64,000 bases of DNA from Candidatus Saccharimonadales bacterium (GCA_041910055.1 JAYRRP010000003.1:109973-173972), one strand, 5' to 3'; positions 18,001 through 21,000 are shown, numbered from the stretch's first letter. Numbers are program-made.

Positions 18001-21000
18001 GATTTACCTTTGCAAGAGATAATTATTCAAATCCTCACTAGTGTCGCTCGTACAGATGCTGGTCCACTACCAGATTTAGTCTTCAAAACAAAAAGTGGGC
18101 TACCTATTGATGGTCATAATTTGCGACGTTCGTTTATCCGACTTACTAAGGAGGCTGGATTACCTCAAATTGCACTCCATACTTTACGGCACACTGCAGC
18201 AACTAATTTGAAAAATCTAGGTATAGCTGCGAGAGACGCACAAGCTATATTGGGGCACGCTCACATAACCACTACTTTGCAAATCTACCAACATTCAGAC
18301 TTTGCTGGAAAGTCTAAAGCACTGACTCAATATGAGTCTCAAATAGTGGATTTGAGTGCTTGTAGCCGTCAAATTAAGCCGTCAAGCTCTAAGTTATTAC
18401 CAGAATTAGCCAAGATTAACATCGGTAGCAACGAACTAGCTTTGGGTAAAGACTCTAAGCTTATGAGTCCCGCGCTCTAACCAACTGAGCTACGCTGCCA
18501 TATTTTTAGATAGCCTCAGATGTGCTATCAGTTTGGGAATATAGCATACTTCGGACTTCGGTTTCCAGTGTCGGATGTAATTCAGCAACCCCCTGCAATA
18601 CCGCTTCCGCCATTTCCTGACGCTCAGGCTTGTGGGGAGGCTCAACCCGTCTGTTTGCATGCAACCTACGGTGAGTTGCCTCGCATAATATTTGCTTATT
18701 CTCTGGCAGCTCTCGATAAGCTACCTCTAGTGGTTGTTGATAGTCACTCCGTGGCCAATATTCATGATGCTCAGTCAGACATTCAGGTAAACGCTCACAG
18801 CCTTCACAGCCAATGCGCTCTTTTTCTCCATATTCTTCAACTAATTTTTTCGCAACTGGCGTGATGCGTATCACGCCATTTTTCATTAAAAAACGGCCCA
18901 AGTGGGAGGCCGCATTTCTTGTGGGAAGTCTTCCTTCTTCGTTGAGTCGCAAAAGGCGCCGTGCAAGCCCGACAAACTCCTCGTGTCGGCGCTGGAATGG
19001 CGGTCCACCTTTTTTACGAGCTCTTTCCATCTTTCCCCCGTAACTTGTGGTCGTCATCGGAGTGAGCTTATTGACACTTACCCCTGTTCATAGTGTAGGT
19101 TATTATGCTCTAATCTTCAATCAAATAAAAAGCACAGACCAAAGTCTGTGCTTTAAATCCAGATATTTTCGTTCTGTTTAAGAAGCTATCAGCTCATCGA
19201 ACTGTGATATCTCTTTACTTGAAGTTGGCAAGAACTCATAAGTCATGCCCGAAGACCCACGCATACTTTATTACTTCCTTTTTTTAATACTGATGTTTGT
19301 TTTGCTGATCAACAACAAATACTATTATACACAAATTTTGTTAATTGTCAATTTTATTCTAAACGGCTATTGTTTTATTCTTTAACGAATGTTTTAATAA
19401 GCCTGCAGGTTCTTATTTAGTTCTTGGCTCACTACATACGGCAAGCGATTCCTTGGTCCGGATAGGCAGAGAGAGACAGATAAGTCGGGTCGTACTTGCC
19501 AGGTTAAAGTAAAGGAAACGATACATGTACAAACTATTCGTAGGCGGCTTACCATTCAGTACTACTGATGAAGAGCTCTCCGAAGTTTTTGGTGCCCACG
19601 GAACTGTTAGTTCCGCAGTAGTCATCAAAGACCGCGAGACTGGCCGCAGCAAAGGGTTTGGTTTCGTAGAGTTCGAGAGCGACGAAGAAGGCAAAGCTGC
19701 TGAAAAAGCATTGCACAACTCTGACCTCGGCGGCCGTACAATTACGGTTAATGAAGCCCGACCAAAAGAGGACCGTCCACGCCGTGATTCCAACGGTGGC
19801 GGATCATTCCAGCAACGTAGCTGGTAATATAAAGGTTCCAAATATTAAAAACCCTGTTTCTTTTTAAAGCGGGGTTTTTAGTTTTTAGGCTGCTTCGGTC
19901 GCCGCCTGCCCTAAGGCTTTCCGCAATTTATCACGGATACGGTGCTGACTTGAACCTACAGTATTCTCAGGAATACCTAATGTAGTAGCTATTTCTTTCT
20001 GTTGCATTCCTACTATCATTAGGCCTAGAATATTTTTCCATTGCTCCGTAAATCTCTCGGTTTCAGCAACCGTTTCGATAACTTCCATAATTCGATCCCG
20101 TTCGGAGTGTTCCACTACCGTCCATTCCGGATCTTGTATCTCTAATTCGCCTGTCGGGTTTTGCGAATAATTAATTTTAAGGTCAATATCTTCGTTTGGC
20201 ATAAACATATGGAGCTTTGCTCTATTTTTGATTTTTCTGTATTTATCAATCGCCGTATTAGTTGCTAAAGTTTTCATCCAGCTGTACGTCTGCTGCGGGT
20301 CTCTGTACTCCATCCTTGCTAAATTAGCAGATATCTTTATGTAAGAATCCTGGATCACATCTTCAACTTCATGATATGGCACAATGTCAGAAACCTTTTT
20401 ACTTAAGGGTGAATCAAATTCTTCTTTTAATGCTTTAAACGCACGCTCCCGCTCTTCAGGATCAGAATTCTGCTGAAATTGAGTCACACAATTTTCGATA
20501 ATCTGCATACGCTGCAGATCTAAATATTCTTGAGGAGGCAATTGCTCTGCTTGAGCATCAGACATATAACTATCCTACCAAATCTAAGTAAATTTAGTAT
20601 ATATTAGTATATTATTAGTTTTTTGTCAATGTCTTAACTTATTTTTCTTTTTGGCGCGAGAAGTAGCTTGCCAAGCGTTTCAATCAGTAAGAAATATTAC
20701 ATTTTCAATGCCTCAGCTGTATCATAGAGTAAGGGACATAAAGTAAAAGGAGGGCGGAATGAGAGGACCGATCGACTATATCATAGTTGGTTTCGAAGGC
20801 AATAAATTTAATGGGAGCATACTCAAAGCCCTCGGCGATGCAATAGACAGCAAAGTCATTGACCTAGTGGCTCTGGCACTCATTAGTAAAGATGCGGATG
20901 GAAACGTCACCAAACTAGATATTGCCAATCTTGGCGACAGTTACGCAGTTGAATTTGCCAAGAAGTATCAATCGAACGACAAACTTATATCAAGCGAAGA

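Follow-up and report, generated by a model that had tools for sequence, protein, structure and literature searches.

The window, a 64-kb stretch of Candidatus Saccharimonadales DNA, carries a small transcription unit on the minus strand (19122-19351), placed in a gap of about 490 nt between two called genes. On one side lies the gene of an RRM-type RNA-binding protein of 100 aa (19525..19827, plus strand; Pfam RRM_1, E = 1.8e-22), and on the other the minus-strand gene of a 174-aa CxxC...HH (HNH-like) protein without a Pfam match (18506-19030). The HNH-like gene is called in its 174-aa form, with no exact match for the 183-aa form of the ORF, and a tRNA-Met comes after it. In public contigs of identical sequence no gene is called between the RRM and HNH-like genes, which fits the description of the gap in an earlier note on this DNA. 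The promoter of the unit is of the sigma-70 type (TTGACA-16-TATAAT, 19324..19351) and agrees with the consensus at 12 of 12 positions; the -35 box TTGACA reads from 19351 to 19346 and, after a 16-nt spacer, the -10 box TATAAT from 19329 to 19324. Transcription probably starts at ~19317. The 5' UTR of ~53 nt (19265..19317) is A/C-rich, mostly unpaired in the predicted fold, and contains the conserved block GCAAAACAAACA and a Shine-Dalgarno sequence AAGGAAG (19280..19274), 9 nt 5' of the start codon. The ORF (19178..19264) runs over 28 codons from the ATG at 19264 to the TAA at 19180..19178. Its product is MRGSSGMTYEFLPTSSKEISQFDELIAS, from which the tryptic peptides GSSGMTYEFLPTSSK and EISQFDELIAS are predicted. 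An intrinsic terminator (19122..19154) with an 11-bp stem (5 G-C pairs), TTTG loop and T-run closes the unit, its hairpin AAAGCACAGAC-TTTG-GTCTGTGCTTT (19154..19129; 11 pairs) being followed by TTATTT. It is the top-ranked terminator-like site in a scan of 14-24 kb. The succession of promoter, Shine-Dalgarno sequence, ORF and terminator reported earlier was thus confirmed in every feature, and the small gene is single-copy in the window. Outside the unit, and of interest as context, a weak promoter-like site TTGAAG-17-TACACT (19092..19120, minus strand; 8 of 12 positions, below the scan threshold) lies between the terminator and the 174-aa gene. A 28-codon ORF in an AT-rich gap is not remarkable alone, short ORFs being common there; the case that the small ORF is real is made by comparative data and not by its length.

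An exact TTGACA-N16-18-TATAAT occurs once in the 64-kb window, where 0.05 matches are expected from shuffles, and 5 of 100 shuffles of the window contained at least one. The promoter singled out in the earlier note as the best match to consensus is therefore the sole perfect one in the window. By itself this uniqueness is suggestive; with its conservation across loci it becomes decisive. In all 28 fetched loci containing the region the sole perfect consensus promoter is again that of the small gene.

The small unit was found in 11 distinct lineages (the window and the loci L007, L011, L015, L020, L021, L022, L023, L027, L028 and L029). Contigs with an identical RRM protein have a gap 100% identical to that of the window and offer nothing for comparison. 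Only three other clusters of the 174-aa protein exist (80%, 58% and 56% identity), and their contigs share the layout of RRM gene, ~490-nt gap and 174-aa gene; a genome-contig scan with the 174-aa protein gave one relative, a Candidatus Saccharimonadales MAG. Alignment of four gaps (window, L007, L011 and L015) showed invariant promoter hexamers, an ORF kept as protein (MHGLSGMAYEFIPTTNKEISQFDELINN, (V)RSIGMSYELLPTSNEEILQLDKILQNSRA and MRNMGMTYELLPTSNEEILQLDKILQNSRA) and a 3-nt indel that is in frame. The terminator stem shows compensatory changes between the window and L007, and the hairpin of L011 and L015 differs from that of these two. A metagenome scan with the peptide profile yielded L020, where a 32-codon ORF with the same perfect promoter and a Shine-Dalgarno sequence adjoins a divergently oriented RRM gene; L020 is without the 174-aa gene, the next gene being a convergent NUDIX gene. 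The same profile found no relative in a scan of viral contigs. Five loci (L021, L022, L023, L027 and L028) were picked solely by RRM homology, and L029 was reached via a called 49-aa protein. The latter possesses TTGACA-16-TATAAT and the same leader block, with a co-directional 200-aa gene as upstream neighbour; no RRM gene was found on its 1.7-kb contig, which extends 1.5 kb upstream of the small gene and ends 40 nt past its stop codon. The RRM homologues bear Saccharibacteria names. The conservation in related genomes on which the earlier note made its reading depend was found, the peptide being conserved in all 11 lineages.

The expression signals of the small gene are retained together with the ORF in these relatives. 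Both hexamers, TTGACA and TATAAT, are invariant in 11/11 lineages, and a GGA/AGG ribosome-binding site lies 5-12 nt 5' of the start codon in all of them. The 5' UTRs measure 33-123 nt across lineages, are A/C-rich and have the common block AAAACAAA. Terminator hairpins of -16 to -21 kcal/mol occur at most 85 nt from the stop codon in 9 of 10 lineages, the exception being L020, where the site overlaps the convergent gene. Distant lineages have hairpins of unrelated sequence, and most hairpins are flanked by A- and T-runs. Promoter, leader, Shine-Dalgarno sequence, ORF and terminator are kept together while the downstream flanking genes change, and the unit is self-contained. Its signals have stayed at consensus in lineages that include several pairs with saturated synonymous sites, which argues for selection for high expression.

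Judged by comparison between lineages, the small ORF is a protein gene under strong purifying selection on the amino acids of one frame. Pairwise differences at codon positions 1, 2 and 3 are 0.50, 0.32 and 0.63 (25 gap-free codon columns), and dN/dS ranges from 0.03 to 0.25 in the pairs with estimable dS; in four pairs dS was saturated and gave no estimate. Stop codons are present in the two other reading frames, and indels within the ORF are in frame. Residues E, P and D are invariant and a Tyr is nearly so (Phe in one lineage), with codons that vary. The order of differences (position 3 > 1 > 2), the low dN/dS, the stops in the other frames and the lack of meaningful conserved RNA structure together indicate that the ORF is under selection as protein. 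Of the readings offered earlier, that of a small protein gene is borne out by these values, by its presence in 11 lineages and by 66 further small homologues. That the ORF arose by chance within conserved intergenic DNA that regulates the RRM gene, and has no function of its own, is scarcely credible. The commonness of short ORFs in the AT-rich gap and the adjoining RRM control region would suit such an origin, but dN/dS is well below 1 with synonymous sites saturated, residues are invariant where codons vary, and Shine-Dalgarno sequence, promoter and terminator are all kept. It also has to account for 80 distinct homologues and for the L029 member, upstream of which 1.5 kb of contig contain no RRM gene.

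The transcript of ~190 nt had also been considered as a small RNA in its own right. RNAalifold applied to the four closest transcripts gave only 8 weak pairs (-4.6 kcal/mol) and, the terminator aside, no conserved structure, although the predicted fold of the full transcript is somewhat more stable than those of shuffled sequences (z = -2.8). Neither a conserved structure or seed nor frame-independent conservation, as proper to a trans-acting sRNA, was detected, and searches of Rfam 15 with the unit (gathering threshold and E <= 10) returned noise only. The pure sRNA reading is thus not supported, the terminator being the only conserved structure and an Rfam match being absent. A dual-function RNA, that is a transcript acting chiefly as a base-pairing or protein-binding sRNA and encoding the peptide besides, is improbable. 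It would fit the leader block GCAAAACAAACA, which is kept at the nucleotide level across lineages, as well as the z-score of the fold and the sRNA-like size and terminator. An unstructured 5' UTR that enhances translation can, however, account for the conserved leader, the conservation of the ORF tracks codons and not bases, and the weak pairing and Rfam noise speak against it as well. Like SgrS/SgrT, SR1/SR1P and RNAIII/hld, the unit has a transcript of ~200 nt with a short ORF and an intrinsic terminator; unlike them, it has no detected conserved RNA structure or seed, and selection acts on the protein sequence.

The unit was further proposed to be a terminator-controlled leader of the HNH-like gene, in which the ORF and terminator would regulate read-through into the 174-aa gene and tRNA-Met. 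In the clade of the window the ORF, terminator, 174-aa gene and tRNA-Met are indeed co-directional and close together, and the succession of a short ORF and a terminator upstream of another gene recalls trpL, hisL, TnaC and SecM/MifM; a conserved peptide sequence is likewise found in arrest peptides of the SecM/MifM kind. Unlike in these systems, the gene that follows the unit differs between lineages and in some of them, namely L020 and L021, is convergent. The downstream proteins of L021, L023, L026 and L028 show no relationship with the 174-aa protein or with one another, so that no common regulated gene follows in the same orientation and the unit does not serve the HNH-like gene as a leader. 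The distance from stop codon to hairpin varies from 6 to 84 nt across lineages; the terminator is too far from the stop for an attenuator, and with so variable a distance a ribosome on the ORF would be unable to reach it. No conserved alternative antiterminator pairing, no terminator/antiterminator pairings coupled to ribosome position and no runs of regulatory codons were found, and the strong terminator is retained in 9 of 10 lineages. Moreover, a conserved promoter-like site of its own (19120..19092) precedes the 174-aa gene; the site is kept in L007 and appears as TTGATT-17-TAAACT at the same place in L011 and L015. A cis-acting leader or attenuator is very improbable on these grounds, and the proposal was rejected.

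The small protein belongs to a large family, which makes the label "orphan" given to the unit misleading. A profile run exhaustively against 1.84 billion representatives found 69 matches at E <= 1e-3, 66 of which are proteins of 28-62 aa with the matching region at the C-terminal end; the longer ones are read as probable over-extended start calls. The 66 small homologues pooled with the loci make 80 distinct members, with the consensus [SG]-[GE]-L-A-[YF]-E-[LF]-[LIV]-P-T-[TS]-[ND]-[EQ]-x-I-L-x-[IV]-D-x-[LIV]-L-x-x-L. All 80 members have E and D, and 79/80 have P; the mean net charge is -3.7. Most members end 2-4 residues beyond the conserved helix. A word-indexed protein search with a padded query row returned only 6 called proteins, and among 5.8 billion protein clusters a handful of members are called as proteins, all "hypothetical"; "hypothetical protein" is the sole name given at source. 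Its shortness puts the gene beyond the reach of gene callers, so that annotations hardly ever include it. Profiles built from 10 and from 55 members (E <= 10) gave noise only against Pfam, NCBIfam and PDB sequences, and nothing relevant was found in the literature on the motif or on small proteins of Saccharibacteria. Neither the libraries nor the literature that were searched describe the family, which is widespread in Saccharibacteria and has members of about 26-36 residues; the stand-alone bacterial microprotein is an already known kind.

The AlphaFold2 model of a 32-aa member consists of an extended N-terminal part and a helix at residues 19-31 (32 residues only, mean pLDDT 79, pTM 0.34). 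The segment T-[TS]-[ND]-E resembles a helix N-cap, and the hydrophobic I, I/V, L and L would lie on one helix face. No signal peptide, hydrophobic segment or double-glycine motif is present in the small protein. A precursor of a modified or exported peptide, either a RiPP or a signalling pheromone, is quite improbable. In its size, and in pairing a conserved N-terminal or middle part with a C-terminal tip that varies, the protein recalls a leader joined to a core; a YcaO and nitroreductase pair occurs ~2 kb downstream in L011 and a MacB-type ABC transporter 3 kb off in the window. Nevertheless, neither a modifying enzyme nor an exporter recurs beside the small gene across lineages, and the YcaO cluster occurs only in the L011/L013 lineage, beyond tRNA-Met. 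The C-terminus lies ~21 residues past the Tyr (median of 80 members), which leaves hardly any core. A core Cys is present in 1/80 members, and no core rich in Cys, Ser or Thr was found. The missing signal peptide and double-glycine motif, and the very reduced biosynthetic capacity of Saccharibacteria, argue in the same direction. The position of the YcaO cluster beyond tRNA-Met is the place at which a 13.5-kb element is inserted in the window.

Several known motifs were compared and set aside. The GatC-like helix, the lasso leader (YxxP) and the cyanobactin leader (LAELSEEAL) differ in spacing or motif and have no profile support, and a sortase LPxTG signal lacks its Gly and a membrane anchor here. 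A type I toxin was rejected since the peptide is acidic and hydrophilic, and no antisense promoter-like site is listed within the ORF.

Taken as a whole, the unit is probably monocistronic and encodes an acidic cytoplasmic protein of 28 residues, which belongs to an undescribed Saccharibacteria family and most likely docks on a partner. Judging from the promoter, the ~190-nt transcript would be expressed constitutively at a very high level, and the product would be an abundant cytoplasmic mini-protein; a perfect consensus promoter is no guarantee of high output. In the protein an extended, invariant motif, L-A-Y-E-L-L-P-T, would lead into an amphipathic helix with an N-cap, T-[ND]-E-Q-I-L-x-I-D-x-x-L, and the net charge would be roughly -4. 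This motif and the hydrophobic side of the helix most likely dock onto a larger protein, as suggested by their combination with essentially no cysteines and with no signal peptide or hydrophobic segment.

Small regulatory proteins of <=50 aa, such as Sda, MciZ and SR1P of B. subtilis and SgrT of E. coli, are usually missed by annotation. The small gene can be likened to these: it is monocistronic, carries a promoter, a ribosome-binding site and a terminator of its own, and encodes a soluble product of a few tens of residues that is expected to bind a larger protein. It differs from them in that the family spans many lineages of Saccharibacteria and not one genus, in its perfect consensus promoter, and in having no similarity to any described family (Pfam, NCBIfam, PDB). 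In the ~1-Mb genomes of Saccharibacteria and other Patescibacteria many genes have no function assigned, and small ORFs are systematically overlooked. The small gene has been retained through a divergence that saturates synonymous sites in several comparisons; this deep retention, and the sole perfect promoter of the window and of each fetched locus, make it a good candidate for an abundant, important component omitted from current annotations. The family is a concrete target in the few genetically tractable Saccharibacteria, if those carry an orthologue. Triplets of perfect promoter, ORF and terminator in intergenic gaps can also expose missed genes elsewhere.

The conserved neighbour of the small gene is the RRM gene, and not the HNH-like gene or tRNA that had been emphasised earlier. 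The two are adjacent and back-to-back in 10 of 11 lineages, a figure that is partly circular, 5 of the 11 loci having been picked via RRM. Counted without this bias, the small unit lies upstream of and divergent from the RRM gene in 5/5 of the RRM-picked loci, and the RRM gene lies beside the small gene in 1 of 2 loci reached in the other direction (L020 yes, L029 no). A probable RRM promoter, TTGTTT, 17 nt, TGn-TTTAAT (19370..19398, plus strand), was read from the sequence; 18 nt separate its -35 box from that of the small gene in the window. The motif is kept in 9 of 10 aligned lineages, with none found in L028. The two promoters lie back-to-back, as described in the earlier note. With -35 boxes so close, the partner or pathway of the small protein might speculatively be that of the divergent RRM protein, a suggestion on the unlikely side. 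A doubtful, more specific version by analogy would be a very abundant, lineage-defining microprotein serving as cofactor or antagonist of the RRM protein, e.g. an acidic gate of RNA binding that would act on it as the antagonist FliW does on CsrA. If this were true, the pair would form a compact post-transcriptional control module in reduced-genome episymbionts. We know of no small divergent partner gene described for rbp genes, and a literature search for one found nothing. The small protein as partner of the neighbouring ECF-like sigma factor was discarded, the sigma factor gene being absent beside RRM in L007 and the other lineages examined. For the RRM 5' UTR, RNAalifold gave no consensus structure, and single-sequence folds are mutually discordant; a suspected long-range helix (CAGGU/ACCUG and CUUAU/AUAAG) was not established, as the folds disagree. 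The RRM neighbour resembles the cyanobacterial-type rbp proteins in its ~100 aa, single RRM and Gly/Arg-rich tail, and in a conserved 5' UTR of ~120 nt, the length implied by the putative promoter. Genes of the cyanobacterial rbp type are often cold-regulated and have long 5' UTRs.

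A tRNA-Met gene (CAT anticodon) on the minus strand of the window is interrupted at the anticodon loop by a 13.5-kb integrative element. The integrated island (about 4923..18458) lies between the 5' half of the tRNA-Met (18499..18459, minus strand) and the 3' half (4922..4875, minus strand); the 12-nt direct repeat GGACTCATAAGC occurs once in each half (18470..18459 and 4922..4911). A tyrosine integrase ORF (17260..18480) crosses the island junction and runs into the tRNA-Met half. The tRNA-Met of relatives is undivided and lies 6 nt past the gene for the 174-aa protein; it directly follows that gene in all four lineages. 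In the 64-kb window, four tRNA genes have the anticodon CAT, the split gene being one of them; two others are located at 31680..31754 and 34919..34994, and the fourth, a tRNA-Met carried by the island itself (5059..5135), might make up for the split copy. The unannotated small gene (28 codons in the window) was also found with a tRNA-Met within about 0.2-0.8 kb, in varying orientation, in the related loci L007, L011, L015, L016, L020 and L022.

The 174-aa protein (18506..19030, minus strand) had no match in Pfam and is represented by only 4 clusters among 5.8 billion. It contains the pattern CxxC...EHHxYWP...N-x3-LC-x3-H-x3-H, which resembles a degenerate form of the HNH nuclease motif. Just past the tRNA-Met, one lineage (L011, also L013) has a cluster of four genes (L011 5723..9174): one codes for a YcaO cyclodehydratase, another for a SagB-like dehydrogenase of the nitroreductase type, and the remaining two for unknown proteins. 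The set resembles an azoline RiPP cluster, something that would be unusual in Saccharibacteria. The cluster adjoins the same tRNA-Met that, in the window, carries the 13.5-kb element.

The 5' UTR of the divergent gene for the RRM-type RNA-binding protein is about 120 nt long (19399..19524, plus strand) and contains blocks strongly conserved in the window, L007, L011, L015, L020-L023 and L027, namely TGCAGGTTCTTAT close to the 5' end and ATAAG...GGTCGTAC immediately ahead of the SD. These blocks suggested that a long-range helix might close the UTR, but no consensus structure came out of RNAalifold, and folds of single sequences were inconsistent with each other. The UTR might serve in autoregulation or as a thermosensor. 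The contigs L026 and L027 encode an identical RRM protein, but an insertion of ~75 nt (CCCCACAAAATTTCACTCTTTCTCGCAATCCGCCAGCCGGCGGACTGCAAGGGAAGCGG..., L026 about 1725..1650) distinguishes their small-gene 5' UTRs. The insertion has an internal inverted repeat, so that it may represent a miniature mobile element. Elsewhere in the window, a cobalamin riboswitch match from Rfam (58660..58819, minus strand) scored 34.5 bits, just over the gathering score of 31.5 bits.
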